Sequence record: MN342151.1
DNA from: Escherichia phage vB_EcoM_3HA14
Direction: 5' to 3' (one strand)
Length of the DNA stretch: 64,000 nt
Position 1 is the stretch's first letter; each line of letters begins with the position of its first letter. This document shows positions 2,945-60,557 of this stretch, piece after piece. The notes under the pieces are model-generated. The model searched no databases, had not been told where the DNA came from, and saw only the letters and a program-made list of their open reading frames with translations. The translations under genes and the position numbers were made by a program.

Positions 2945-2954
2945 AAATTAAAAA

Positions 2955-2970
2955 GGCTCCCGTAGGAGCC
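2955..2970 (-). terminator. intrinsic terminator-like hairpin (GGCTCC-CGUA-GGAGCC) with U-tract on minus strand
   Basis: inverted repeat ggctcc/ggagcc followed on the minus strand by a T-run; lies just downstream of the NadV-family gene. Confidence 0.5.
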
Positions 2971-2985
2971 TCTTATCATACTGTT

Positions 2986-4803
2986 TTAAAGTTGCTTGTC
3001 AATAGTATTTCGAACATCACGCAGGTTAATGTAACCGTAAGGTTGCGAGTTGCTAAATACCAGTTTCAAAGCACTATGACAATTGTCAATTGCACCTTCA
3101 AACTCTGCAAAGCCAAAACCGTCTACAGCTACTAGCTTGTCACCATCCCACATAGGTACAACTCCACCAAAAGCAGACTTCTTAAGGCCACTGTCAGTTT
3201 TAGGGTCTTTAGCCAGCATAATTTCTTGACCATCCATCTGTGCAAGAGTTGCTTTAACAGCAAATGCAAAGGTGTCACGAGTCAGGTACTGATAGGTGTA
3301 TGAGCCTACACCAAACACTACGTTAGAACTTGCAAAACCTTTATCAGCAAGACGTAACAGAATCTCATTAGCCCTCTCCAGAGTGATAGAATCACCGTAG
3401 ATTAGCCCAATGTGCTCATCCAGTACTTTGTACCCTTTGGAGTTAACAGTGCCACCAAAGATGTTATACAGCGTGTGGATAGCTCCATCAATTTCTGCTG
3501 TTAACATACGCTTCACAGTAAACTGTCCAGTCTTCTGAGCAGTAATCAGGTTGATTGTATCAGCAGATTCAAAATCTTCTTTATCAACAACCATCTCATA
3601 ACCTTCAGAGATTAGCCAAGCAGAGAACCCAAAGCCAATATCAGACATTTCACAATTCAAGATTGTGTCATGCAGATGTGTATTGTTCGGTGCAAGCTCT
3701 TTCATGTGCTTATAGAACATTGACTTAGCAGTTTCCCATTCAATGGCTTTGTAACCTGTGACAATGTGAACAGGGTCTCCAGAGTCTGGACGGATTACCA
3801 ACTTACCATCACGATTCAGGATTACATTACGTAGCTCTGGCAGAATCTGTGTAACAGTACGCCAGAAGTTGTAAGTATCTGATACGGCACTTGCAATACC
3901 AGTTGGGTAAACTTCTGTCAGAAGGCGATGGAAAGTTTCTACCTCACCACGCCAACGCATTGCATCAAGTAAGTTGTCAGAATGCGATAGATGCCAATCA
4001 CTTACCTCTTTGTTAAGACTGTTCCATGAGATGTTTGCACACATCACAGAGTGCTCAGTAGCCGGGACAGAGTTACCAATCTCACCTACATTCATAAACT
4101 GACCATATGCACGTTTAGCTGTATATACAGCAGGGAAGCTGTCAGTACCTTTAAAACTTGTCAGGTGACCTACTGCGTTAAACGCATCATCTGTGAAGCC
4201 AGACATACCACGCATTGCAAAGTCATGACACTGCCAAGGTAAATGGAAGTCATTGTCACAGGTCTTATCAGCCCATTGCTTACAGATACGTTTGTAATGC
4301 AGTGCAATAGTTGCAATCGTACAAGCCTTCCAGATTTCAGCAGAGAAAGCATCTTCAAGATAACCAGCTACCCAATGGAATCCTTCTACAGTGTTTTTGA
4401 AGACAATCATCGGGACACGCATAGGGACAATTGTACCTTCCTCTACAGAGTAGACTTCAACAGGCAGGTAACCCAAGTCATGAAGTTCTTCCCAATGTTG
4501 ACGACCAATAGCATCTGCACCAAGGACACCATTCATGATTTCCAAGATTTCGTCAATGGCTTCTTTCTTATCACGTTCAAAGAACGTTGCATTCCAGTGG
4601 TCTACCAGATAGTCTTTTACAAAACGCTGAATACCAAAAGCTACAACACCATCAATCTCTAACGGAGAGTTAAACCATTTATCTCCACGAGGTGTTAAGT
4701 TCAACATAAGATACTGTGTAGCATCTGGATACTGATAGATATGACCCGCTTTATAAGCATCTGCATTAAGACCTGCTGGTACTGCATAGATTGATTTAGT
4801 CAT
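2986..4803 (-). CDS. nicotinamide phosphoribosyltransferase family protein (NadV-like; candidate Namat of a NAD+ reconstitution pathway)
   Basis: 605 aa; NAMPT/NadV-family features recognised by eye along the whole translation (e.g. KAGHIYQYP near N-terminus); ATG at 4801-4803; GAGAGAGAUA motif just upstream of start. Confidence 0.75.
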   Translation of the reverse strand: MTKSIYAVPAGLNADAYKAGHIYQYPDATQYLMLNLTPRGDKWFNSPLEIDGVVAFGIQRFVKDYLVDHWNATFFERDKKEAIDEILEIMNGVLGADAIGRQHWEELHDLGYLPVEVYSVEEGTIVPMRVPMIVFKNTVEGFHWVAGYLEDAFSAEIWKACTIATIALHYKRICKQWADKTCDNDFHLPWQCHDFAMRGMSGFTDDAFNAVGHLTSFKGTDSFPAVYTAKRAYGQFMNVGEIGNSVPATEHSVMCANISWNSLNKEVSDWHLSHSDNLLDAMRWRGEVETFHRLLTEVYPTGIASAVSDTYNFWRTVTQILPELRNVILNRDGKLVIRPDSGDPVHIVTGYKAIEWETAKSMFYKHMKELAPNNTHLHDTILNCEMSDIGFGFSAWLISEGYEMVVDKEDFESADTINLITAQKTGQFTVKRMLTAEIDGAIHTLYNIFGGTVNSKGYKVLDEHIGLIYGDSITLERANEILLRLADKGFASSNVVFGVGSYTYQYLTRDTFAFAVKATLAQMDGQEIMLAKDPKTDSGLKKSAFGGVVPMWDGDKLVAVDGFGFAEFEGAIDNCHSALKLVFSNSQPYGYINLRDVRNTIDKQL

Positions 4804-6526: not shown

Positions 6527-6545
6527 GATTTCTCCAAAATAAAAA

Positions 6546-6565
6546 GGGAACCTTTTACAGTTCCC
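6546..6565 (-). terminator. intrinsic terminator-like hairpin GGGAAC-CUGUAAAAGG-GUUCCC
   Basis: perfect inverted repeat followed on minus strand by T-run; downstream of ORF 6579..6890. Confidence 0.5.
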
Positions 6566-6578
6566 TAATCATATACGC

Positions 6579-6890
6579 TTACTGAGCTATTTTCAAGACT
6601 TTTAAGAAACCTTCCTCGCCAATTGCATCATAAACGTTTTCAGTTGGCTTGATAAGGTTGTTCAAGCATACAATTTTCTTACGCTTCTTGTCATAAGTAA
6701 GCTTCAGTTGTTTCAACTCTTTGTCATCTTCAGGGTGCTCATTGTACATCTTCACAGCTTCTTTGAAGCTAATGTAGCCACCACCTAAAGTAAGGAAACC
6801 TGTACCACAATAGTGGGAGTTGTGTTTATCAGCCATAAACTGGCACAGGATAGAAATCTGAATTTTACGAGTGTTATAAATCTTTTCCAT
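6579..6890 (-). CDS. hypothetical protein
   Basis: 103 aa ORF. Confidence 0.45.
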   Translation of the reverse strand: MEKIYNTRKIQISILCQFMADKHNSHYCGTGFLTLGGGYISFKEAVKMYNEHPEDDKELKQLKLTYDKKRKKIVCLNNLIKPTENVYDAIGEEGFLKVLKIAQ

Positions 6891-7943: not shown

Positions 7944-8335
7944 TAGCACACCTCAACTTCAAAACTTACATGTTTTGTGACGTACTCTTCACAATGCTCT
8001 TTAATAAATTCCTGAAGCAGTTCATCTTCCTGAGCACGAGTCATCAAAGCAACATACTTTGGATTCATTGTTTGCTGAATACTGTAGAAAGACATGTCAC
8101 CAATTTCTGTACCATATGAATCTGACCATGTTCCAGTTACTACTAAGACTTTATCACTCAACTCCGTAGGGAGTTCAATGTCATCATCCTTTGCGTCATC
8201 AATAACAGAGTCAGTTATTAAAAGAGTACATGCTATGTAAAACTCTGAGTATTTTCTGTGAGTTTTCTCACAAGAGCCACACTCTAAAGCATAGTCTTTA
8301 AGCCAGTTCATTTGATTTTTATTTAATTTAGTCAT
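7943..8335 (-). CDS. hypothetical protein
   Basis: 130 aa ORF, ATG with AAGGAAAG RBS. Confidence 0.45.
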   Translation of the reverse strand: MTKLNKNQMNWLKDYALECGSCEKTHRKYSEFYIACTLLITDSVIDDAKDDDIELPTELSDKVLVVTGTWSDSYGTEIGDMSFYSIQQTMNPKYVALMTRAQEDELLQEFIKEHCEEYVTKHVSFEVEVC

Positions 8336-8431
8336 TTCTCTTTCCTTTCAATGTGTTGTATAAAAGCCCTAACAAGAAACCTAGTAAGACAGAGCCTACT
8401 AAGGTGACTAACAAGAATGTCTTAATCATCA

Positions 8432-8689
8432 TCAATACCACCATATTGTTTGGTTGTTATCACAAACATACAGGTACTCTGTCCCGATTTGTGGGACGAT
8501 GATTGTAGTGTTGCCTGATATGACTGTCATATAGTATAGGTAATTTCTACTCTGTGACGTTTGCTGACAATGGTTTGCAGTCATCCAAAGCTTAGTGTGG
8601 TAACTGTCATACACAGCAAAACCTATCAGAATTACTAATGCAATCCCAAGAAACCATAACCAAAATTTAGGCCAAAAATCATAGCTCAT
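8432..8689 (-). CDS. hypothetical membrane protein
   Basis: 85 aa, one hydrophobic helix (FLGIALVILIGFAVY). Confidence 0.4.
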   Translation of the reverse strand: MSYDFWPKFWLWFLGIALVILIGFAVYDSYHTKLWMTANHCQQTSQSRNYLYYMTVISGNTTIIVPQIGTEYLYVCDNNQTIWWY

Positions 8690-8758
8690 ACGTTAATTCC
8701 ATACTCAATAAAAAAGGTGATGTAAGCCTATCAAGACCTACACCACCTTGTCAACTAC

Positions 8759-10903
8759 TTACATAGATTTTCTATCCTGAATTTCAGCAATTTTTGCATC
8801 GTTCATTCTGGAAGTACCTTTAATCTTAGTCCAGCCAAGATAACCACAAACACGGTTAATCACAGAGATATCGTGTGAGTTGCACTTAGGACACAATTCA
8901 ACATCTGCACTTGGACGGTGACCACAATTCTCACAGATTGCCAAGTCAAAGTTAACACCTTGATAGAAACCTTTACCCATACCTCTTGTCACACAAGCCC
9001 TAATAGCTTTATGATTCTCTGGATTAGCAATACGAACGTACTGGATATGACCACCATTACAAGCATGGAAGAAAGGTTCTTCTAAGTCTTGCTTTTCAAA
9101 TGGTGTAATATCTGCACCAACATTCATGTGGAAGCTGTTTGTAAAGTATTCTTTATCAGATACACCTTTAACAACTCCAAACATGTTTCTAAACTGCTTC
9201 AATTGCGTACCACAAAGGCTCTCAGCAGGTGTACCATAGAGGGCATACAAGAAACCATCTTCCTGTTTAAACTGCTCCAGTTTGCCATTCAGGTAGTTTA
9301 AAACCTTACTTGCAATATCACCGTCTGACTCATGTAATCTTTTACCTTGTGCAAGTACTGTTAACTCATCCAATGCAGTGACACCAAAAGAGGCTGTAAA
9401 AGATTTCACAGTATCCCAACCAATCTTGTCAGTTGGCTTCTTATGACCTTTATACAAACCACCTTGTGTGAATGCTAGAGGGTTAGAGCTTGCTGGCATA
9501 TTAGCAATCATCTCATAACGTTTTTTATGGAAGCTTCTAATCATCTCAAGATACTTGTCAAGTTCTGTCCAGAAGTCTAAACCATTCTCTTCAGAATACT
9601 TGTAAATCATTGGCAGATTAAGAGATACTGCACCGATATTTGCTCGCCCTGTGTAGAACTCTTTACCATCTTCATCATGATATGGAGATAAGAAAGCTCT
9701 GCAACCCATTGGAGAGATGACTGCACCTGAACGCTCAAAAGCTTCTGCAACAGAACCATGACCAGAAACACTTAAGAAGTCTGGGTACATAGCTTTAGAA
9801 CAGCACTCAATAGCTTTGTCATAAAGAGTTCCCTGCCAAGGGTCTAACATGTGTCTTGTTTCATCATAGATGTAAACCAGTTTAGGGAATACAACAGGCT
9901 TCTTAGATTTACCTTGACCATTCATTCTCACATCAAGAATAGTCTTCGCAATCATAAATTGCAAGCGGTTATCTTCACTAGCCATATCTGGTTCGAGTAA
10001 ACCAAATGTTAAGGTTGTGAATGCAAAGTCACCACGGCTGCAAGGAACTGTATTCAGTTTCATTTCCAGAGATTGGAAGCCTTGGGTTAGCTCAATCTGA
10101 AGTTGTTCTTTAGCATAGTGGTATGCACCACCTCTCCCTGTGATATTATACTGCTTTGCTTTCTCCAGATGATACTCAAAAGACTTCTTAGCATATGGCA
10201 CAAGAACCTTGTCAATCTCTGGGATAGTAAATCCACCAAATTGCTGTGCCGTTGCTGAGAGTACAACGTCACCAATAACCTGTAAAGCTGAAAGTACAGA
10301 CTTTGGTTCGCAGTATTCAATGCCGGACATTTCAAAACCACCTTTCAAGACGCTTCCAATGTCAAACAAGCAACAGTTAATACCACCGAAGATTAAATCT
10401 CTTAAGTCATGGATATAAATGAAACCATCTTCAATAGCACTTGCTTCTTCTGGTGTCAAGTGATACTGCTTAAAGATTTCTTTTGTCAAATATCCACGGA
10501 TGATTGAACCTTTTGTAGAGATTAAGCTACTGTCAAAGTTAGCATTCTCACGGTCACCTAAGAAGAGTGTGTCTTTAGTCTTTTGATAAAGCTCATCCCA
10601 ATTCTGTGCAACCTCTTTACGATAGTTTCTGTAGGTTGAATATGACTCATAGATTTCATGGTTTACCTCTGCCAGAGTTCCTTCCACAATACTGTGAACA
10701 TCATCTACAGAGATGAGCATAGCATTCTGATTAGTTGCTCTGACAAGCAGTCTCATAAAGGCTGATTCAAGAGCATGGATAACTTCTAGTGGTAACTCTT
10801 TGTAGCCAACTCTATTAGCTGACTTGGTAACTGCTTCGACGATTTTATTTACATTTGGTTTTTCCAGTGAACCGTCTTTCTTAATAATTTGTACTTTAAC
10901 CAT
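8759..10903 (-). CDS. nrdD: anaerobic ribonucleoside-triphosphate reductase
   Basis: ATP-cone-like N-terminus, C-terminal Cys cluster and glycyl-radical motif RVCGYLG; start moved to ATG at 10901-10903 (AGGAG RBS) because the longer track ORF would run through a terminator hairpin. Confidence 0.85.
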   Translation of the reverse strand: MVKVQIIKKDGSLEKPNVNKIVEAVTKSANRVGYKELPLEVIHALESAFMRLLVRATNQNAMLISVDDVHSIVEGTLAEVNHEIYESYSTYRNYRKEVAQNWDELYQKTKDTLFLGDRENANFDSSLISTKGSIIRGYLTKEIFKQYHLTPEEASAIEDGFIYIHDLRDLIFGGINCCLFDIGSVLKGGFEMSGIEYCEPKSVLSALQVIGDVVLSATAQQFGGFTIPEIDKVLVPYAKKSFEYHLEKAKQYNITGRGGAYHYAKEQLQIELTQGFQSLEMKLNTVPCSRGDFAFTTLTFGLLEPDMASEDNRLQFMIAKTILDVRMNGQGKSKKPVVFPKLVYIYDETRHMLDPWQGTLYDKAIECCSKAMYPDFLSVSGHGSVAEAFERSGAVISPMGCRAFLSPYHDEDGKEFYTGRANIGAVSLNLPMIYKYSEENGLDFWTELDKYLEMIRSFHKKRYEMIANMPASSNPLAFTQGGLYKGHKKPTDKIGWDTVKSFTASFGVTALDELTVLAQGKRLHESDGDIASKVLNYLNGKLEQFKQEDGFLYALYGTPAESLCGTQLKQFRNMFGVVKGVSDKEYFTNSFHMNVGADITPFEKQDLEEPFFHACNGGHIQYVRIANPENHKAIRACVTRGMGKGFYQGVNFDLAICENCGHRPSADVELCPKCNSHDISVINRVCGYLGWTKIKGTSRMNDAKIAEIQDRKSM

Positions 10904-10918
10904 TCTGACTCCTAATGC

Positions 10919-10940
10919 AAAAAAGGTCTCCGAAGAGACC
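10919..10940 (-). terminator. intrinsic terminator: GGUCUC-UUCG-GAGACC tetraloop hairpin plus U6 tract
   Basis: perfect palindrome ggtctccgaagagacc with aaaaaa on plus strand (U-tract on minus); about 20 nt upstream of nrdD start. Confidence 0.6.
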
Positions 10941-10952
10941 CTTATATTAATT

Positions 10953-11153
10953 CTACTTAGAAAACTTTTCAATAAGCTTTTTAAGCTTTCCACTCAAACC
11001 ATGTTTGATATCTAATATCTCAAAGATAACCCATACTAGCATAGCTCCAAAGAGAGCACCTTGTTTTAAATCAGTAAACAGGCTAGTAACCATGAATGCC
11101 AGAGCAATCATCGGAGCATCTTCAACAAAACCATCCCATAAACGTTTAAGCAT
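10953..11153 (-). CDS. hypothetical small membrane protein
   Basis: 66 aa with hydrophobic segments. Confidence 0.4.
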   Translation of the reverse strand: MLKRLWDGFVEDAPMIALAFMVTSLFTDLKQGALFGAMLVWVIFEILDIKHGLSGKLKKLIEKFSK

Positions 11154-11388
11154 TATTCACCTCTGCCATAAAGTTCTGTAGTGTTCCAACAGGTTTCATT
11201 TCATTGTCTTCAACCTTCATAATGAAAGGCATCTGACGAACAGGTATCTTTGCAATATCCATCAGGTCACTTAGCTCATAATCTTTCCCAAGCATTCTTA
11301 CAACATGGTCTAAGCCACGAGCCTGAGCAAAGTTCTTAGCAGTAACACACTGTGGGCATCCATCTTTTGAGTAAATTACATAAGTCAT
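11146..11388 (-). CDS. glutaredoxin/NrdH-like redoxin
   Basis: 80 aa with CPQC active-site motif near N-terminus; sits between nrdB and nrdD. Confidence 0.65.
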   Translation of the reverse strand: MTYVIYSKDGCPQCVTAKNFAQARGLDHVVRMLGKDYELSDLMDIAKIPVRQMPFIMKVEDNEMKPVGTLQNFMAEVNNA

Positions 11389-12461
11389 TAAGGAACCTCT
11401 AAAAATCCTGAATTTAAATCATCAACAACAGTATTCAAAAGGTACGCACCATTTTGTTGTTCTTGGTTAGCGTTTTGCTCTTTATCAATTTCCATCTTCT
11501 TAATCATATATTTCAAAGGTGGTTCTTTAGGAGCTACAAAATCTCTTGGAATACCAAACATATCATACAATGGAGCAGCGTTGTAGTAAACCCATTCGTG
11601 AAGAAGTTTTGTATTCAAACCTACAACAGCACGTCCTTCAGAAAAGATATAATAAGACCATTTCTCTTCACTTTCAACTACTTCATCCAGAATTACTTTA
11701 ATTTCTGGGAGTACTTGACGGAAAGCTTCTTGCCACTCTTCATCTTTCAAAGTTTCTTTTAATGCTTCGATATCAATCTTTGTGTGAATGATTTCGTCAA
11801 GCATAATTTTCTGTACTGCTTGTGCAATCCCTTGGAACTTATCTTGTGCATCAAGTGCAAAGGTACATGCAAAGGATGCCATGAAGGAAATACCCTCAAG
11901 TGCTGTTACTGCAAAGAGACCTTTTAAGATTACTTTGTGGAAGTGTAAAGGGTCTTTCTCCATTAGCTCTTGACGAACATAGCTTAAACGATAGTTAATA
12001 CCTTCGTCAAGAAGTTCTGCCAGTGCTCTGTTCACAGTCTTCAATCTGTCCTGAACAGCAGCATTCTGGTTAATCTCATCAAGGATTGTTTCAGGGTTCT
12101 TGATACACTGACGAACAATCTCTGAATAAGTTAGTGCATGAAGGTTCTCAATTTCTGATTGCTTCATGATAGCAGTTGCATAGATATCATCAGAGATGAA
12201 TGGTGCAAATGCAAAAGCTAAACTCTTAGCAACCTGTGTATCTGCTTCCCATTGCCATTTCAGAATCTCAAGCATTACACCAGACATTGACTGAGGAACA
12301 CTCTCAAAGTCTAACCGTGACTGTTCAAATGGGAACTCATCTTCAGACCAGTCTTGTGCTTTCTGCTGCTTATACAGTTCAAAGATTTTTGGATAGTGTT
12401 TATTCAGTGAATCGAAAGTTTTTCGTTCGCCGCCTAAGAAAATTGGATGTGGGTTAATCAT
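11388..12461 (-). CDS. nrdB: ribonucleotide reductase class Ia small subunit
   Basis: 357 aa, ferritin-like di-iron RNR beta features recognised by eye; adjacent to nrdA. Confidence 0.8.
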   Translation of the reverse strand: MINPHPIFLGGERKTFDSLNKHYPKIFELYKQQKAQDWSEDEFPFEQSRLDFESVPQSMSGVMLEILKWQWEADTQVAKSLAFAFAPFISDDIYATAIMKQSEIENLHALTYSEIVRQCIKNPETILDEINQNAAVQDRLKTVNRALAELLDEGINYRLSYVRQELMEKDPLHFHKVILKGLFAVTALEGISFMASFACTFALDAQDKFQGIAQAVQKIMLDEIIHTKIDIEALKETLKDEEWQEAFRQVLPEIKVILDEVVESEEKWSYYIFSEGRAVVGLNTKLLHEWVYYNAAPLYDMFGIPRDFVAPKEPPLKYMIKKMEIDKEQNANQEQQNGAYLLNTVVDDLNSGFLEVP

Positions 12462-12841
12462 TCTGGTAAGATTCCTGTATCTAGAAAGTTTCTGGCTTCA
12501 GTTGTTGTCATAACAACCCATTTGTCCTTGTTGAACATATCAAGTGGTCTTGCATATGTTTGCTTTGGATTAAAACAATCAACATATCGTATATGTTCTT
12601 TCCAAGAACCATCTGGCATCTTAACTTTTAAGTCTAAGTCTGCAATATAATACAAAGACCGTCTTGGAATATAAAATAAATATAGTGAGTTATCTTTGCT
12701 ACGTATTCTCGCATTGCGAATTAAATCTAGCATATCTTTCTCCAAGTTAATTTTAGAGGGTCTTTTACGACCCTCATAGTTATTAAAACTAAACGCCGCA
12801 ACCCTCACAGTAGGCATCTTGTAGTGCTGATTTACCAACAC
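12458..12841 (-). CDS. hypothetical protein (inserted between nrdA and nrdB)
   Basis: 127 aa ORF with GTG start overlapping the nrdA 3' end; no motif recognised. Confidence 0.35.
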   Translation of the reverse strand: MLVNQHYKMPTVRVAAFSFNNYEGRKRPSKINLEKDMLDLIRNARIRSKDNSLYLFYIPRRSLYYIADLDLKVKMPDGSWKEHIRYVDCFNPKQTYARPLDMFNKDKWVVMTTTEARNFLDTGILPE

Positions 12842-15023
12842 CGATACGACTGTTAAGGTAGTACATAGTTTTCAAACCAACAAGGTTTGCATAAATCATG
12901 TACTTCAAAGCTTGCTCTAATGATACCTTCTTAGACTTCGAGTAGTCAACATAGAAATCTGAAGAGATAGCTTGACCAGTGAATTTTTGAACAATTGCAT
13001 AGCAATCAATCATATCAAATGTGTCAATATCCCAAGCAATTTCATATACATACTTCAACTCTTCATAGTCAGGTACAATAAACAGAACGTTACCAGTTGC
13101 AGACTTCTTAGTTAAGATGAAGTCACGAATAGGGTACAGGCCGTTTGTCGTGTTAGTTGCCAGAGAAGAACTCTCATTAGGCATATAAGCCTCTAACACA
13201 GAGTTACGAATACCACCATTTTCTTTAATTCGATGTGACAGGTCATCCCAATCATAACGAAGTTTTGCATCGTGCTTTTCATCAATTTTCTTGTTAGCAG
13301 TCTTTGGTGGAACCCAACCGTCAGGGTACTTAGTAAACTGCATGTACTCTGGTACACCACGCTCTTTTGCGAGTCTTAAAGATGCTTCATGCAAGAAGTA
13401 AGAGTGCATCTCAGCCAACTCATGGAGTTTAGTTTTACCAGCCCTTGATGAGTAGTTCACATAGTTCTTCGCAAGGTAATGAGCCACATTAGTAAGGCCA
13501 ATACCAACAGAACGGCGTTTCTGAACGTGGTTACGCATTGACGGATACGGATAATCCATAAGGTCAATAACGGAGTCAACCATTGCAAGAGCATAATAAG
13601 CAACGTCAGCGTATTCATCTTCTGTGATTCTCCCTGCAACCAAACTAGCTAGGAAGCAAAGAGCAACTTCACCGTCTTCTTTCTTGGCTGTGTAGCTATA
13701 CAGGTCTCTTTCATCCTCAAAACCGTGAACTGGTAAGACAATCTCCATACACAGGTTTGACATTTTCAAAGGCTCTTTGAAAGGTGTATGATAGTTTGCG
13801 TTGTTAGTAAAGAACGGGTAAACACGTCCTGTAGCATAACGTTGCTGAATAAACAACTTGGCAACCTCACGAGCCTTCACACGTTTATGTTTAACACCTG
13901 TATGAACTGCGTGACCTACTGCCATAGCAAATTCATCAGCACTTGCTGTGTAGAACATGTCATACAGTCTTGGTGCATCTTTGTAAGAGAATAGCAACCA
14001 ATCTGTATCGTACTGTACACATTGCCAGAAGTAATCATTTGCACCAAATGAGTAGTCCATTTCATTAATACGCTTTGCAGGAACCGTTGTAGGGTGCTTC
14101 AAGCGTAGCAAATCCTCAATCTGTGGGTCTAATGCAGTGAAGAAGTTATTAGCTGAACCACCACGACTCTTCTGTTTATTAGCCTCTACAGCAGCACGTA
14201 CAAGCTTATAATAAGGGAGTTTTCCCATATGCTCAATAGTGTTTTGTCGGATTCCATCACCAATTGTTCTGGTCTCCATCAGCATACCAATACCTGCTTG
14301 CTTAGTGGTCATGTCATAAGCTACTTTTGTAGCAATTCCAAGAGACTCCGCAGTATCATTTGCTTTAATTAGGCAGCATGAAGCATAGCCAGATTTTGTA
14401 GCTCTCAGACCATTCAGATATGGTGTAGGGGCATTAATCTTCAGGTCAGATAGATATGTGTAGAGCTTAATAACATCATCTAAACGACGCTGTTTAGGCT
14501 GTCTTTCAAAGGCTTTCATAGCCATACCCATGAACATAAACTGTGGAGACTCAAACAGCTTACCACTTTTAATGTCACGGATTCCATACTTATCACGGAA
14601 CTGCTTCAGTACTGCATACCCATAAGAGATATCTTTTGAATGTACGATGTGACCTTGTAAGTAGTCAATCTCTTCAGGTGTGTAATCCATATGTTCCCAA
14701 AGCCCCATCTGCTCCATCTTCATCACAAATGGAAGTAACTGAGGAACCTTTGTAAATCCACCAAAAGCTTCTTTGTAGATAATGCCAAGAAGTAGTCTCC
14801 CAGCCATATCAGAGTACTCTTGAGTTTGTTTATCAATACAAACGTCAATCATAGCTTGGTGCATTTCTTTTGTTGTACAACCTTCATAGACACGCTTCAT
14901 AGCTTCCATTACAACTTCTGACCAGATAATTCCTCTCTTGTCAGCCCATGAAGCCCATTTATTTAAACGTTCTGGTTCGAATGGTACGATTGTACCGTCT
15001 GATTTGCGAATAGTAGTAATCAT
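12789..15023 (-). CDS. nrdA: ribonucleotide reductase class Ia large subunit
   Basis: 744 aa; active-site motif NLCMEI, C-terminal CxxC tail; ATG at 15021-15023. Confidence 0.85.
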   Translation of the reverse strand: MITTIRKSDGTIVPFEPERLNKWASWADKRGIIWSEVVMEAMKRVYEGCTTKEMHQAMIDVCIDKQTQEYSDMAGRLLLGIIYKEAFGGFTKVPQLLPFVMKMEQMGLWEHMDYTPEEIDYLQGHIVHSKDISYGYAVLKQFRDKYGIRDIKSGKLFESPQFMFMGMAMKAFERQPKQRRLDDVIKLYTYLSDLKINAPTPYLNGLRATKSGYASCCLIKANDTAESLGIATKVAYDMTTKQAGIGMLMETRTIGDGIRQNTIEHMGKLPYYKLVRAAVEANKQKSRGGSANNFFTALDPQIEDLLRLKHPTTVPAKRINEMDYSFGANDYFWQCVQYDTDWLLFSYKDAPRLYDMFYTASADEFAMAVGHAVHTGVKHKRVKAREVAKLFIQQRYATGRVYPFFTNNANYHTPFKEPLKMSNLCMEIVLPVHGFEDERDLYSYTAKKEDGEVALCFLASLVAGRITEDEYADVAYYALAMVDSVIDLMDYPYPSMRNHVQKRRSVGIGLTNVAHYLAKNYVNYSSRAGKTKLHELAEMHSYFLHEASLRLAKERGVPEYMQFTKYPDGWVPPKTANKKIDEKHDAKLRYDWDDLSHRIKENGGIRNSVLEAYMPNESSSLATNTTNGLYPIRDFILTKKSATGNVLFIVPDYEELKYVYEIAWDIDTFDMIDCYAIVQKFTGQAISSDFYVDYSKSKKVSLEQALKYMIYANLVGLKTMYYLNSRIGVGKSALQDAYCEGCGV

Positions 15024-15043
15024 TATATTAAATCCTACAGGTG

Positions 15044-15066
15044 AAAAAGGGTCTCCGAAGAGACCC
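15044..15066 (-). terminator. intrinsic terminator: GGGUCUC-UUCG-GAGACCC tetraloop hairpin plus U5 tract
   Basis: same palindrome as at 10925-10940, followed on minus strand by U-run; about 25 nt upstream of nrdA start. Confidence 0.6.
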
Positions 15067-15074
15067 CTTAGAGA

Positions 15075-15410
15075 TTAAATGCTAAAAATCTTTTTACTTT
15101 CCCAGAGTTCAATGAACTTCTGTGACACTTTTGTTAGTGAACCTTTAGACATTGTATTCATGTACCAGTAACGTTTACCTTCATCGAATGCCATGTCAAG
15201 TTTCTCACTAATATCTTCTTCAAGTCTTGCAATTGAAAAGTTACCACGTACTTTGCAGACAACTCGTCCAAATTTGATATCGCTGCGACCTTTGCAATCT
15301 TCAGTGTACATTACAAAGTCACCATGATGTAATGTCTCACCAAACTTATCATTGCCTAGTTCTTCACCAGCTTTGATTTCTTCTTTAGTTAACTTTTTAA
15401 TTTTAGACAT
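15075..15410 (-). CDS. hypothetical protein
   Basis: 111 aa ORF. Confidence 0.45.
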   Translation of the reverse strand: MSKIKKLTKEEIKAGEELGNDKFGETLHHGDFVMYTEDCKGRSDIKFGRVVCKVRGNFSIARLEEDISEKLDMAFDEGKRYWYMNTMSKGSLTKVSQKFIELWESKKIFSI

Positions 15411-15729
15411 GATATCTATCCAAGTTTCGTTTCAAGTAAATCCACTGGTCATCTGTGCGCTCTACACCCATGAACAGGGGGGCTACAACAACTTTACCAA
15501 AAGTATTTCTGTGCTGGCAAATCTCGTAAGAGTACGGTTTATCAATATTTAAGCCATACTTATACAACACTGCTGCTAATACTTGTTCATTATCCAGAAT
15601 CGTTTCTGGCTTCTCTCCGTACTTGTCTAACAGTGAATCATTCATAAACACTGTCATAGAGAGGTTGTAGTTGGAGAAGTGGCTTTTTGCCACCACTTCT
15701 TCACCTTTATTAATGTTCTGTGAATCCAT
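15403..15729 (-). CDS. hypothetical protein
   Basis: 108 aa ORF. Confidence 0.45.
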   Translation of the reverse strand: MDSQNINKGEEVVAKSHFSNYNLSMTVFMNDSLLDKYGEKPETILDNEQVLAAVLYKYGLNIDKPYSYEICQHRNTFGKVVVAPLFMGVERTDDQWIYLKRNLDRYHV

Positions 15730-16465
15730 TATAACCGACTCCTTTCAACCACTGCTTGAGGTTGATTGCATCATAATTCAATTTCGGATATGAGGTTACA
15801 TGGAACTTCTCACCATCATAGTACACAATATCCGCAAGCCATAATCCATTCTCACGGCAGAAATCTTTATCTGCTTTTGAAGAGATTGGTTCAACTTTAG
15901 AAAAGTTTTTAATGCCAAGACTACCAAGACTTCCAATCAGTCCTTGGCAGATAACGCATGTGTCAGATGTTACCACAAATAATTCTTTTGCGTCAACTTC
16001 TGCAATAAAACTTTCAAGTTGAACTTTTGGAAGATTAGACTGTTTCATAATCTTACCATCAGACTTGCGAATAATCGCAAACCACTCTTTACCTTCGATG
16101 ATTGATTGACGCAGGTAACATTCATCACCAGTACGTTTCTCAATATCAAACATTCGCTGTAGAGCTTCTTGATAGTCGTCTGTGTATTTGAGGTTGTTGT
16201 TTTCACAAACAGCCTTGATAGCACCATCATGGTCATGTTGTGTCAGGAAAATTAAACCATCAAGTACATACTGCAAATCAGCTTGAGCATCAAGGGTCTC
16301 AACAGGGTCTTTGGCTTCTACTGCTGCGACTAACTCTCTAGCTTCTTCAAGCATACACAGAGATTGGCTTTTCAGTGATTCCCAATACTCTGTGCTGTAT
16401 GGTTCTTTTGGATTATTGCCACAACGTAGATTCCAATTTCTTACGGATTCTCTGGAATTAAACAT
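15710..16465 (-). CDS. hypothetical protein with MazG-like NTP pyrophosphohydrolase-type N-terminal motif
   Basis: EEARELVAAVE...LDAQADLQYVLDGL resembles MazG EExxE/ExxD helices; C-terminal half unassigned. Confidence 0.3.
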   Translation of the reverse strand: MFNSRESVRNWNLRCGNNPKEPYSTEYWESLKSQSLCMLEEARELVAAVEAKDPVETLDAQADLQYVLDGLIFLTQHDHDGAIKAVCENNNLKYTDDYQEALQRMFDIEKRTGDECYLRQSIIEGKEWFAIIRKSDGKIMKQSNLPKVQLESFIAEVDAKELFVVTSDTCVICQGLIGSLGSLGIKNFSKVEPISSKADKDFCRENGLWLADIVYYDGEKFHVTSYPKLNYDAINLKQWLKGVGYNGFTEH

Positions 16466-16695
16466 TAAGCCTCCTTATCTTCAAACAACTTTTGTTGAGA
16501 CTCAATATAGTCCATTCGTTCTTTGAGTTCAACACGTTTGCTTAACAGATGTTGAATTTGTGATTCCAGAGCATCCATCTCAGCTTCTGTAGCTGACTTA
16601 GCTTTACTGATAGTTTCCTTCAGTGCTGCTACACCACTCTGGATTTTAGAAACATGGTCATTTTTGATTTTATTAAACATTTTAAACTCTCTCAT
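16465..16695 (-). CDS. hypothetical coiled-coil protein
   Basis: 76 aa ORF. Confidence 0.4.
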   Translation of the reverse strand: MREFKMFNKIKNDHVSKIQSGVAALKETISKAKSATEAEMDALESQIQHLLSKRVELKERMDYIESQQKLFEDKEA

Positions 16696-17182
16696 TAAGT
16701 TTCATGATTTTAGTGATTCTCTTCTCAGCTTCATCATAAGTCTCTTTTGTAAGAAACTTGATTGCTGCAATGTTCGCATTGTAGAAGAGTCGAAGCTTAG
16801 AGTCAATCCTTTTTGTCATGACGTCAAACTTATGTTGTAGGTTAGCTTCGCCATAAACTAAGCCACCTCGCGTATAGTAAGTCTGGATGATGTAGAAGTC
16901 AAACTCTTTTTCACCAAAAGATTCAATATCCTTCTTAATGTACTCAGAAGATGTTTGGTAAGTCATCCAATCACTTTCTTTTGTCACGACTTTACGTCTG
17001 GTCTTTCCAGCAACCTTTTTCTTAGTGACGTTATTAAATTGTTTCTTTCCAATATAATATTGTCCAGTTTTCTTACAGTATACTAAATAGACAAAACCAA
17101 AATAGTTAGCGGGGTTAATTTCCCCGCACAGTGAAACCCAATGTCCATAAACAGGGCAATTTCCAAATCCTTTAATCTTCAT
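16682..17182 (-). CDS. GIY-YIG domain nuclease (possible homing endonuclease)
   Basis: FVYLVYCKKTGQYYIGKK matches the GIY...YIG motif spacing; downstream Arg cluster. Confidence 0.4.
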   Translation of the reverse strand: MKIKGFGNCPVYGHWVSLCGEINPANYFGFVYLVYCKKTGQYYIGKKQFNNVTKKKVAGKTRRKVVTKESDWMTYQTSSEYIKKDIESFGEKEFDFYIIQTYYTRGGLVYGEANLQHKFDVMTKRIDSKLRLFYNANIAAIKFLTKETYDEAEKRITKIMKLNERV

Positions 17183-34100: not shown

Positions 34101-34120
34101 GGCTCCCGTAAAAAGGAGCC
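34101..34120. terminator. bidirectional terminator hairpin GGCTCC-CGTAAAAA-GGAGCC
   Basis: inverted repeat between convergent thyA (+) and 34127..34501 (-), flanked by A-run and T-rich sequence. Confidence 0.55.
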
Positions 34121-59979: not shown

Positions 59980-60057
59980 TGGTGTTCCAAGACGGATTCG
60001 AACCGTCACTAATACAAGGTTTGAGCTTGCATCCTCTGCCAATTGGGATACTGGAAC
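59980..60057 (-). tRNA. tRNA with anticodon CAA (Leu by anticodon), short variable arm
   Basis: anticodon stem GCAAG/CTTGT, loop CTCAAAC; T-arm GACGG-TTCGAAT-CCGTC; A73; variable region about 6 nt. Confidence 0.45.
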
Positions 60058-60058
60058 T

Positions 60059-60133
60059 TGGTACTCGCTGAAGGACTTGAACCTTCTTCACCAACTTGTA
60101 AGGATGGGGCTTTACCATATAAACTAAGCGAGC
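60059..60133 (-). tRNA. tRNA-Val (UAC)
   Basis: acceptor GCTCGCT/AGCGAGT, anticodon loop CTTACAA, T-arm GAAGG-TTCAAGT-CCTTC. Confidence 0.6.
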
Positions 60134-60228
60134 TTTGAAGAGGTCTGAAGCTGTGCCGCTAACTCAACTCCGTGGAATTTGTTACGGTCTTCAGTTGACT
60201 CAAGCGGTCTTTCACTTGACCTCAAAAT

Positions 60229-60305
60229 TGGTGCTGCTCACAGGACTCGAACCTGCATCTCCATCCTTACAAGGGATGTGCAATAGCCAATTATACGAAA
60301 GCAGC
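60229..60305 (-). tRNA. tRNA-Thr (UGU)
   Basis: anticodon stem CATCC/GGATG, loop CTTGTAA; T-loop TTCGAGT. Confidence 0.65.
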
Positions 60306-60311
60306 ATTATT

Positions 60312-60386
60312 TGGAGCATCCAGAGGGAATCGAACCCTCAACCTCAGTTTGGAAGACTGTAATTTTCCCATTTAAACTATGGATGC
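60312..60386 (-). tRNA. tRNA-Gly (UCC)
   Basis: acceptor GCATCCA/TGGATGC, anticodon loop CTTCCAA, T-arm GAGGG-TTCGATT-CCCTC. Confidence 0.7.
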
Positions 60387-60392
60387 ACTAAT

Positions 60393-60468
60393 TGGTGGAG
60401 AAGCAGGGAATTGAACCCTGTACTTAAGTTTGCAAAACTTATGTTTTAACCATGTAAACTACATCCCC
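60393..60468 (-). tRNA. tRNA-Ala (UGC)
   Basis: G3-U70 wobble pair in acceptor (Ala identity element), anticodon stem TAAGT/ACTTA, loop TTTGCAA. Confidence 0.7.
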
Positions 60469-60474
60469 ATTGTT

Positions 60475-60550
60475 TGGTACAGGTGGAGGGAATTGAACCC
60501 ATCGTCTTACTGATTAAGAGTCAGCCGCATAACCATTTTGCTACACCTGC
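60475..60550 (-). tRNA. tRNA-Lys (CUU)
   Basis: anticodon stem GCTGA/TCAGT, loop CTCTTAA; weak 3-bp T-stem; paralogous to the 61927-62002 tRNA. Confidence 0.5.
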
Positions 60551-60557
60551 ATTAATT

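Follow-up and report, generated by a model that had tools for sequence, protein, structure and literature searches.

How are reductase genes transcribed when a terminator-like hairpin stands directly in front of them? This question is raised by a stretch of 64,000 nucleotides from Escherichia phage vB_EcoM_3HA14 (MN342151.1)—hereafter called the "window"—which belongs to Mooglevirus, within the Felix O1-like myoviruses (Ounavirinae). In this phage, a short GC stem with a UUCG loop and a U-tract precedes both nrdD, the gene of the anaerobic class III reductase, and nrdA, the gene of the large subunit of the aerobic class Ia reductase. We find that both hairpins are ordinary, previously published terminators of a genome-wide family, and not a special reductase switch. 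We consider it likely that terminators of this family bracket the aerobic reductase block, that nrdD has its own promoter fused to its hairpin, and that nrdA is fed by read-through.

Structure and conservation of the two hairpins

The exact 16-mer GGTCTCTTCGGAGACC occurs at two sites on the minus strand, 10940–10925 before nrdD and 15065–15050 before nrdA, and no further copy was found in the 64 kb, even at three mismatches (0.25 matches expected at that tolerance). The first-pass annotation of this DNA had described the palindrome as GGTCTC-CGAAG-GAGACC, with a five-nucleotide loop. Hairpins do exist at both places, but this sequence is absent even when two mismatches are allowed. The true motif has a four-nucleotide loop and reads GGTCTC-CGAA-GAGACC on the plus strand; on the minus strand it is GGTCTC-TTCG-GAGACC, with a T-tract after it. 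The identical core of the two copies is 17 nucleotides long (GGGTCTCTTCGGAGACC), and the nrdA copy gains one G-C pair.

On the mRNA, the nrdD element is AAGGGUCUC-UUCG-GAGACC-UUUUUU. Its stem can extend into the run of six U residues (10924–10919), giving AAGGGUCUC-UUCG-GAGACCUUU, and the message then continues as GCAUU-AGGAG-UCAGA-AUG. The nrdA element is AAGGGGUCUC-UUCG-GAGACCC-UUUUU-C, followed by ACCUGU-AGGA-UUUAAUAUA-AUG. At both sites, the UUCG loop is closed by a C-G pair (CUC-UUCG-GAG); UUCG is a favoured loop in the intrinsic terminators of Escherichia coli. The GC stem capped by UUCG, which had been proposed for the mRNA without naming a strand, is seen together with its U-tract on the minus, coding strand. 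This strand folds at −12.3 kcal/mol (z −4.2) for the nrdD hairpin and −15.6 kcal/mol (z −3.5) for the nrdA hairpin, while the opposite strand folds more weakly (−8.8 and −12.1 kcal/mol, respectively). In addition, the extended stems contain G-U pairs that are possible on the RNA-sense strand only. In folds of 55–57 nucleotides, essentially nothing but the terminator hairpin is formed, apart from a weak additional helix beside it at the nrdA site.

The stems end 21 nucleotides (nrdD) and 25 nucleotides (nrdA) before the start codons, in agreement with the 20–25 nucleotides first given, and the Shine-Dalgarno sequences are left unpaired. The hairpins follow the preceding stop codons by 9 nucleotides (nrdD site) and 5 nucleotides (nrdA site). 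They come to lie directly ahead of genes because the genome is compact. A terminator scan also called the nrdD hairpin (10943–10922), and our own scan for hairpins followed by T-tracts lists both sites. Each site has a stable GC stem-loop and a 3′ U-tract on the coding strand, compensatory changes between genera preserve the pairing of the stem, and by every sequence criterion the two elements are Rho-independent terminators, as had been claimed. A chance origin of the two identical 16-mers was rejected from their context—intergenic, on the coding strand, followed by a U-tract and conserved—and not from the repeat count alone.

We collected the 90 nucleotides upstream of nrdD and of nrdA from 29 IMG/VR Ounavirinae loci, which were chosen by position and not by a hairpin search. 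Hairpins lie at the same positions in these 29 related genomes. The nrdD hairpin is unchanged across the loci, despite strong divergence at the end of the upstream open reading frame (ORF) and around the Shine-Dalgarno sequence. The nrdA hairpin has two forms, GGGTCTC/GAGACCC in loci of the Mooglevirus type and in a small number of further lineages (L004, L005, L016 and L018) and GAGCCTC/GAGGCTC in Felixounavirus, which are related by two compensatory pair changes (T-A to C-G and G-C to A-U) with the UUCG loop kept. The equivalents in the Kolesnikvirus Erwinia phage Harbringer, GGACTC/GAGTCC, show a further compensatory flip (U-A to A-U). Because the nrdD hairpin is invariant amid diverging flanks and the nrdA stem changes are compensatory, the comparison indicates selection on an RNA structure. 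An alignment of the hairpins gives 100% pairing with five of the seven pairs covarying, but its rows were preselected as hairpins and we discount it as illustrative. The sameness of the two copies is a feature of the lineage and not a rule, because the Felixounavirus stems differ from each other (GAGCCTC/GAGGCTC versus GGTCTC/GAGACC).

Could the palindrome instead be a DNA operator for a dimeric regulator of both reductases, like the NrdR boxes? A perfect inverted repeat of 6–7 bp does lie ahead of both reductase genes. However, the stem sequence covaries rather than staying fixed, its G-U pairs exist in the RNA sense alone, the T-tract follows the direction of transcription, and the hairpin is not specific to the reductases, as described below. 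The NrdR box pattern (tandem 16-bp, acaCwAtATaTwGtgt) has two weak matches in the 64 kb (about two expected by chance), none of them near the nrd genes, and an Rfam scan of 8000–16500 gave no match at E ≤ 1. The operator reading is thus close to refuted, and we give it hardly any credence. A riboswitch or attenuator is not supported either: there is no Rfam match, the sequence ahead of the hairpins is coding, and the folds are essentially those of the terminator hairpin. No FNR-like half-sites were seen upstream of nrdD in a check made only by eye.

The hairpins themselves have been described before. In Table 2 of the Felix O1 genome paper (Whichard et al. 2010, Viruses 2:710, PMC3185647), the Rho-independent terminators t111 (73004–73025, gagcctcttcggaggctctttt) and t116 (77111–77131, ggtctcttcggagaccttttt) are listed between ORF111 and nrdA and between ORF116 and nrdD, respectively; in the Felix O1 record, nrdA starts at 73044 and nrdD at 77151. 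The t116 hairpin is the same as the nrdD hairpin of the window and occupies the orthologous position. The t111 terminator is also orthologous in position but has the other stem (GAGCCTC/GAGGCTC), and hence the pair is not identical in Felix O1. Furthermore, the GenBank record of Citrobacter phage Moogle carries a "terminator" feature in front of nrdA. According to the Felix O1 paper, it is not known whether transcription passes its many terminators by read-through or starts anew at secondary promoters. Both the hairpins and the question of their read-through have therefore been on record for Felix O1 since 2010, and with the terminators tabulated there and annotated in a sister genome, the hairpin observation by itself adds little.

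Transcription of nrdD and nrdA

How, then, does polymerase reach the two genes? Every gene from position 1 to approximately 24,000 of the window lies on the minus strand. The order on this strand is a 111-residue ORF, hairpin, nrdA, a small ORF, nrdB, the glutaredoxin gene (grx), a 66-residue ORF, hairpin, nrdD and a long hairpin, and the identities of nrdD, nrdA, nrdB and glutaredoxin are supported by Pfam (Table 1). The gaps between the hairpins and the start codons, which include the Shine-Dalgarno sequences, are by their length too small for a promoter, so that the RNA of nrdD and nrdA would have to originate inside the hairpins or further upstream.

Immediately upstream of the nrdD hairpin, a promoter scan and our own position-weight scan both found a candidate sigma-70 promoter, scoring 11.25 bits (99.95th percentile of the strand). 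Its −35 element and spacer overlap the end of the 66-residue ORF, and its −10 element ends 1 nucleotide ahead of the extended stem and 3 nucleotides ahead of the GC core. The predicted start, about 7 nucleotides past the −10 element and near 10937, falls within the 5′ arm of the stem, and RNA begun 5–9 nucleotides past the −10 element folds at only −6.2 to 0 kcal/mol. RNA from this promoter should therefore escape the terminator. Divergent lineages have TTGAGA-17-TAATAT, TTGATA-17-TAAAAT or TTTAAA-17-TATAAT at the same place. The predicted Felix O1 promoter P117 lies 55 nucleotides upstream of t116, and a promoter abutting the hairpin is not mentioned in that paper (PMC3185647); the fusion of promoter and hairpin before nrdD is new relative to the published terminator lists. 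Taken together, the predicted sites argue that nrdD probably has its own promoter, one that escapes the terminator.

Nothing comparable was found just upstream of the nrdA hairpin, where the best site scores 2.7 bits in the window and 2.7–3.7 bits across all lineages, and a promoter directly at this place was rejected. The nearest strong candidates for nrdA lie further upstream, such as TTGACT-17-TACAAT at 16806–16778. Since nrdA has no adjacent promoter, the aerobic operon would be reliant on read-through of the hairpin at 15066; as judged from the promoter scans, nrdA-nrdB must depend on it. The first-pass annotation had supposed that reductase expression depends on read-through, antitermination or internal promoters. 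The candidate at nrdD provides for an internal promoter and the situation at nrdA calls for read-through, while nothing in the predicted sites points to a dedicated antitermination system. Apart from the extra base in the loop and the unstated strand, the earlier observation is confirmed, and its interpretation is partly supported.

We propose that the C(UUCG)G terminators, each with an A-rich leader, a GC stem of 6–7 bp and a U-tract, would split the long co-oriented arrays into transcription units. First, the hairpin at 15066 would end the unit upstream of nrdA and act as a partial stop for polymerase entering nrdA-orf-nrdB-grx-orf66, and the aerobic operon would be supplied by read-through from promoters further upstream. 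Second, the hairpin at 10940 would close the aerobic reductase block and insulate nrdD, which would be transcribed from its own host-type (sigma-70) promoter set against the upstream side of this hairpin. RNA born at the nrdD promoter could not form the hairpin and would remain unterminated, while RNA arriving from upstream would be terminated. Finally, the long hairpin at 8747 would close the single-gene nrdD unit. In the semi-quantitative reverse-transcription PCR (RT-PCR) classes of Felix O1, ORF111, nrdA, nrdB and grx belong to 25 min and nrdD to 60 min, which fits separate control of nrdD. The two reductases are probably supplied differently, nrdD from its own promoter and nrdA-nrdB by read-through, in line with this timing, and without any special hairpin control shared between them.

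Several points weigh against this proposal. The late, 60-min RT-PCR maximum of Felix O1 nrdD sits uneasily with a plain sigma-70 promoter. The Felixounavirus −35 element changes along with a codon that differs synonymously or between Ala and Ser (TTGCGA, TTTCGA, TTTCAA and TTTCTA; 8.2–11.3 bits), and selection on it looks weak from these variants. The −10 element overlaps or follows a TAA/TAG stop codon and an A-rich leader, which inflates −10-like matches; stop codons and A-rich leaders favour −10-like hexamers, but not a correctly spaced −35 element. The Mooglevirus version has no purine at the canonical start positions, and a start at G10939 would retain a 5-bp hairpin. Moreover, the promoter matrix is our own approximation, and the census of terminators is our own list from the scan for hairpins followed by T-tracts. 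Our literature search found no 3′-end or 5′-end mapping of any Ounavirinae phage, and we infer termination and its efficiency, read-through, promoter use and activity, and the start site.

The terminator family and its phased candidate promoters

Are such hairpins confined to the reductase genes? Other terminators on the transcribed strand of the window lie at 2970 (UACG loop), 6565, 8747, 18254, 22579, 34120, 47127 and 57966, and Felix O1 and KPS64 have several additional UUCG terminators with other stems (GGCTCC/GGAGCC and GGCTGC/GCGGCC). Erwinia phage Harbringer (PP854833.1, L040/L041) contains 12 identical copies of GGACTC-TTCG-GAGTCC with a T-tract (Table 1), and one copy with another loop at 76089. 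All 13 are intergenic, near ligase, tail, lysis and reductase genes; the side of the T-tract is always set by the local direction of transcription, and the copies share only the hairpin unit of approximately 28 nucleotides, not their flanks. The hairpins thus have no reductase specificity, and the same class punctuates the whole genome. The idea of a duplicated device specific to the reductases does not survive this comparison, given the varied contexts of the 12 Harbringer copies and the non-identical pair in Felixounavirus.

The exact Mooglevirus 16-mer is also present in at least 80 stretches of IMG/VR viral contigs (loci L043–L121 among them). Among the 83 matches listed, the flanks bear no relation to Ounavirinae in about 65, and a T-tract follows in 72 of the 83, nearly always with A-rich sequence ahead. 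This number of occurrences, with mostly unrelated flanks and a T-tract after most of them, suggests that the 16-mer is probably a recurrent, convergent solution for a terminator.

These U-tracts bear on another explanation, in which the array is transcribed continuously and then cut into stable segments, and the hairpins act mainly after transcription, either by blocking 3′ exonucleases or by capping the 5′ end of the reductase message. C(UUCG)G hairpins are known as exceptionally stable in T4 mRNA (PMC4371310), the hairpins here are placed exactly between cistrons, and a start of nrdD at G10940 or G10939 would leave a hairpin of 5–6 bp at the 5′ end of its message. The U-tract would nevertheless be superfluous for such a role, but four to six U residues stand directly 3′ of the stem in all family members of three genera, and the 16-mer is mostly followed by a T-tract elsewhere, in the proportion given above. 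The phage also has a hairpin without a U-tract, at 12775–12756, and so uses both kinds. We regard a mainly stabilizing role as unlikely; it is compatible with termination, which would itself leave this protective hairpin at the 3′ end of the RNA.

The homogeneity of the copies within a genome and their compensatory difference between genera (GGTCTC twice in Mooglevirus, GGACTC 12 times in Kolesnikvirus) suggest, at the level of sequence patterns, concerted evolution. This pattern would also be expected if the hairpins were primarily recombination substrates or mobile cassettes with homogenised copies, making the 4.1-kb aerobic block excisable, and the promoter-terminator repeats of T4-like phages have indeed been shown to recombine (PMC2839356, PMC4122927). 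However, just 17 nucleotides are common to both copies, the nrdA-nrdB block is present in every relative among 279 phage records and 29 IMG/VR loci, and the presence of this 16-mer in numerous phages without relationship to one another speaks for convergence towards a favourable terminator. No sign of a recombination junction was seen at the nrdA hairpin, where the block-wise identity profiles have no sharp mosaic switch. In these profiles, the upstream ORF is less conserved (58–75%) than nrdA (79–89%). The L005 and L016 loci have the Moogle-type hairpin together with an NrdA that is 93–94% identical in amino acids to that of the window, about as diverged as in the Felixounavirus-type loci. 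A primary role in recombination appears less probable still than one in RNA stability, and recombination would at most be additional to termination.

Is the promoter abutting the nrdD hairpin an isolated case? In four sequences (the window, the remaining KPS64, Felix O1 and Harbringer), 14 of the 69 candidate terminators have a promoter within the top 0.2% whose −10 element ends 0–4 nucleotides before the GC stem, while about 1.8 are expected. When ±120 nucleotides around the terminators were scanned, the 0–4-nucleotide bin held these 14 matches and no other 5-nucleotide bin held more than three. Three of the fused modules are in the window, at nrdD, 6565 and 2970, and the last two are conserved in Felix O1 (Table 1). 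The hallmarks of the promoter-early stem-loops (PeSLs)—composite sigma-70 promoter and terminator repeats of T4-like phages—are therefore found here in part: many copies share a conserved architecture, and a near-consensus sigma-70 promoter adjoins the stem-loop at the nrdD hairpin, though not at the nrdA hairpin.

Tentatively, we propose that a separate version of the PeSLs exists in Felix O1-like phages, in which a host-type promoter ends 0–4 nucleotides before the terminator stem and transcription starts in its 5′ arm. The terminator would stop incoming transcription and be invisible to RNA from its own promoter, and the copies would stay the same inside each genome but diverge from genus to genus through compensatory change. 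If this is true, insulation and restart are accomplished within approximately 50 bp, and the identical copies imply either ongoing recombination among them or co-adaptation to a shared trans-acting factor. Our literature search found no work linking PeSLs to Felix O1-like phages. As read from the predicted sites, the phased fusion of host-type promoters to some terminators, including that of nrdD, is only a modest novelty. It would extend the PeSL idea beyond the T4-like phages, and in phage genome engineering it could serve as a compact design rule open to testing; Felix O1-like phages are used in biocontrol.

The features are collected in Table 1. The segment 8600–15500 of the window matches Shigella phage Sf18 at 98.9% identity, and along most of its length it matches more than 200 Felix O1-like genomes at above 80% identity. 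A few neighbouring elements were also observed. The hexamer TTGACA lies at 8754–8749, just upstream of the hairpin after nrdD, and a matching −10 element would fall within the stem. The hairpin without a U-tract, GAGGGUC-GUAAAA-GACCCUC (12775–12756, minus strand), lies between the nrdA stop codon (12791–12789) and the next small ORF and may serve RNA stability or processing; Harbringer likewise has a hairpin between nrdA and nrdB. The GUAAAA loop also caps the terminators at 6565 and 47127, and its reverse complement forms the loop of the hairpin at 34120, the Felix O1 counterpart of which is listed as a terminator on both strands (t79 and t80). A separate intergenic repeat family, ggtaaa-GCTCT-ttatct-GGGGC-ttatcttat, is found outside the region of the window, on the strand opposite to small early genes (KPS64 L037, 19087, 20337, 22223 and 23174; Felix O1, 8683 and 10352). 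A large cluster of tRNA genes at approximately 60000–64000 is indicated by the KPS64 annotation of the collinear region.

Table 1. Hairpins, promoters and genes discussed in the text (window coordinates unless another genome is named)
Feature	Position	Strand	Basis or remark
Terminator hairpin before nrdD, AAGGGUCUC-UUCG-GAGACCUUU	10922..10943	−	Terminator scan, fold, conservation; orthologue of Felix O1 t116
nrdD hairpin core, 6-bp GC stem	10940-10935 / 10930-10925, loop 10934-10931	−	
nrdD hairpin, three outer pairs	10943-10941 with 10924-10922	−	Use first 3 U of U-tract
U-tract of nrdD terminator (6 U)	10919..10924	−	First 3 U also pairable as outer extended stem
Candidate sigma-70 promoter abutting nrdD hairpin	10944..10972	−	−35 TTGAAA 10972-10967, 17-nt spacer, −10 TAATAT 10949-10944
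Terminator hairpin before nrdA, AAGGGGUCUC-UUCG-GAGACCCUUU	15046..15069	−	Fold, covariation, Moogle annotation; orthologue of Felix O1 t111
nrdA hairpin core, 7-bp stem	15066-15060 / 15055-15049, loop 15059-15056	−	
nrdA hairpin, three outer pairs	15069-15067 with 15048-15046	−	Use first 3 U of U-tract
Short U-tract of nrdA terminator (5 U, then CACC)	15044..15048	−	First 3 U also pairable as outer extended stem
Second fused module, TTGAAA-17-TATGAT (6596-6568) with hairpin GGGAACU-GUAAAA-GGUUCCC and U-tract (6566-6545)	6545..6596	−	Conserved in Felix O1 at 81488
Third fused module, TTGACA-16-TATGAT (3002-2975) with hairpin GGCUCC-UACG-GGAGCC and U-tract (2974-2951)	2951..3002	−	Conserved in Felix O1 at 85520
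Fused modules, Felix O1	5291, 16616, 18680, 81488, 85520		
Fused modules, KPS64 (L037)	10036, 12101, 27214		
Fused modules, Harbringer	52364, 66968, 76089		
Identical hairpin copies, Harbringer	12387, 14319, 23997, 51840, 52364, 62945, 64214, 66968, 72028, 76513, 77795, 82083	Locally transcribed strand	
Long terminator hairpin (14-16 bp, G-U pairs) with U-tract just after nrdD stop	8714..8749	−	Conserved in Felix O1 at 79306
nrdD, anaerobic class III reductase, 714 aa	8759..10903	−	Pfam NRDD 4.8e-116, ATP-cone, Gly_radical
nrdD Shine-Dalgarno, AGGAG	10913-10909	−	
nrdA, class Ia reductase large subunit, 744 aa	12789..15023	−	Pfam Ribonuc_red_lgC 8.1e-90
nrdA Shine-Dalgarno, AGGA	15036-15033	−	
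Remainder of aerobic reductase unit between both hairpins	10953..12461	−	nrdB, glutaredoxin, 66-aa ORF
nrdB	12461-11388	−	Pfam
Glutaredoxin (grx)	11388-11146	−	Pfam
66-aa ORF	11153-10953	−	Stop TAG 10955-10953, upstream of nrdD hairpin
111-aa ORF	15075..15410	−	Homologue of Felix O1 ORF111; stop TAA 15077-15075, 5 nt ahead of nrdA hairpin

Comparison with known systems

C(UUCG)G hairpins first attracted attention in T4 mRNA through their exceptional stability (PMC4371310). The hairpins described here share with them the UUCG loop, the C-G closing pair, the short GC stem and the location between the cistrons of a virulent myovirus. The copies of the present family differ in that they all carry a U-tract and are nearly identical within a genome.

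The closest parallel to the fused modules is provided by the PeSLs (Arbiol et al. 2010, PMC2839356; Comeau et al. 2014, PMC4122927). In both, a near-consensus sigma-70 promoter is fused to a terminator stem-loop in the narrow interval from a stop codon to the next Shine-Dalgarno sequence, many times per genome, and one PeSL subclass, with the stem-loop just past the −10 element and before the start, has the same layout as the nrdD, 6565 and 2970 sites. However, the window phage belongs to another subfamily, and its hairpins have UUCG, UACG or GUAAAA loops and U-tracts, rather than polyG/polyC stems. Only a single phasing class, with a gap of 0–4 nucleotides, is found here; the −35 element lies inside the upstream coding sequence, and the nrdA hairpin is promoterless. 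In addition, the identity profiles at the nrdA hairpin revealed no link to indels or to the shuffling of orphan genes.

Overlaps of terminators and promoters have also been described between Salmonella operons (2019, PMC6735719). There, too, both elements occupy the same few dozen base pairs and couple insulation with re-initiation. These overlaps belong to cellular operons, differ in the detail of which element extends into the other, and have an experimentally shown regulatory role.

For the nrdA hairpin, the most instructive precedent is the intrinsic terminator of the T4 nrdA-mobE-nrdB region (Wilson & Edgell 2009, PMC2790892), which has a short U-tract and stops 30–50% of transcripts, while read-through and an internal promoter serve the downstream genes. 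This terminator, located within the coding sequence of mobE, has no homology to the present hairpins and is tied to the insertion of a homing endonuclease. Its behaviour, within a phage reductase cluster, is nevertheless the one that we propose for the nrdA hairpin.

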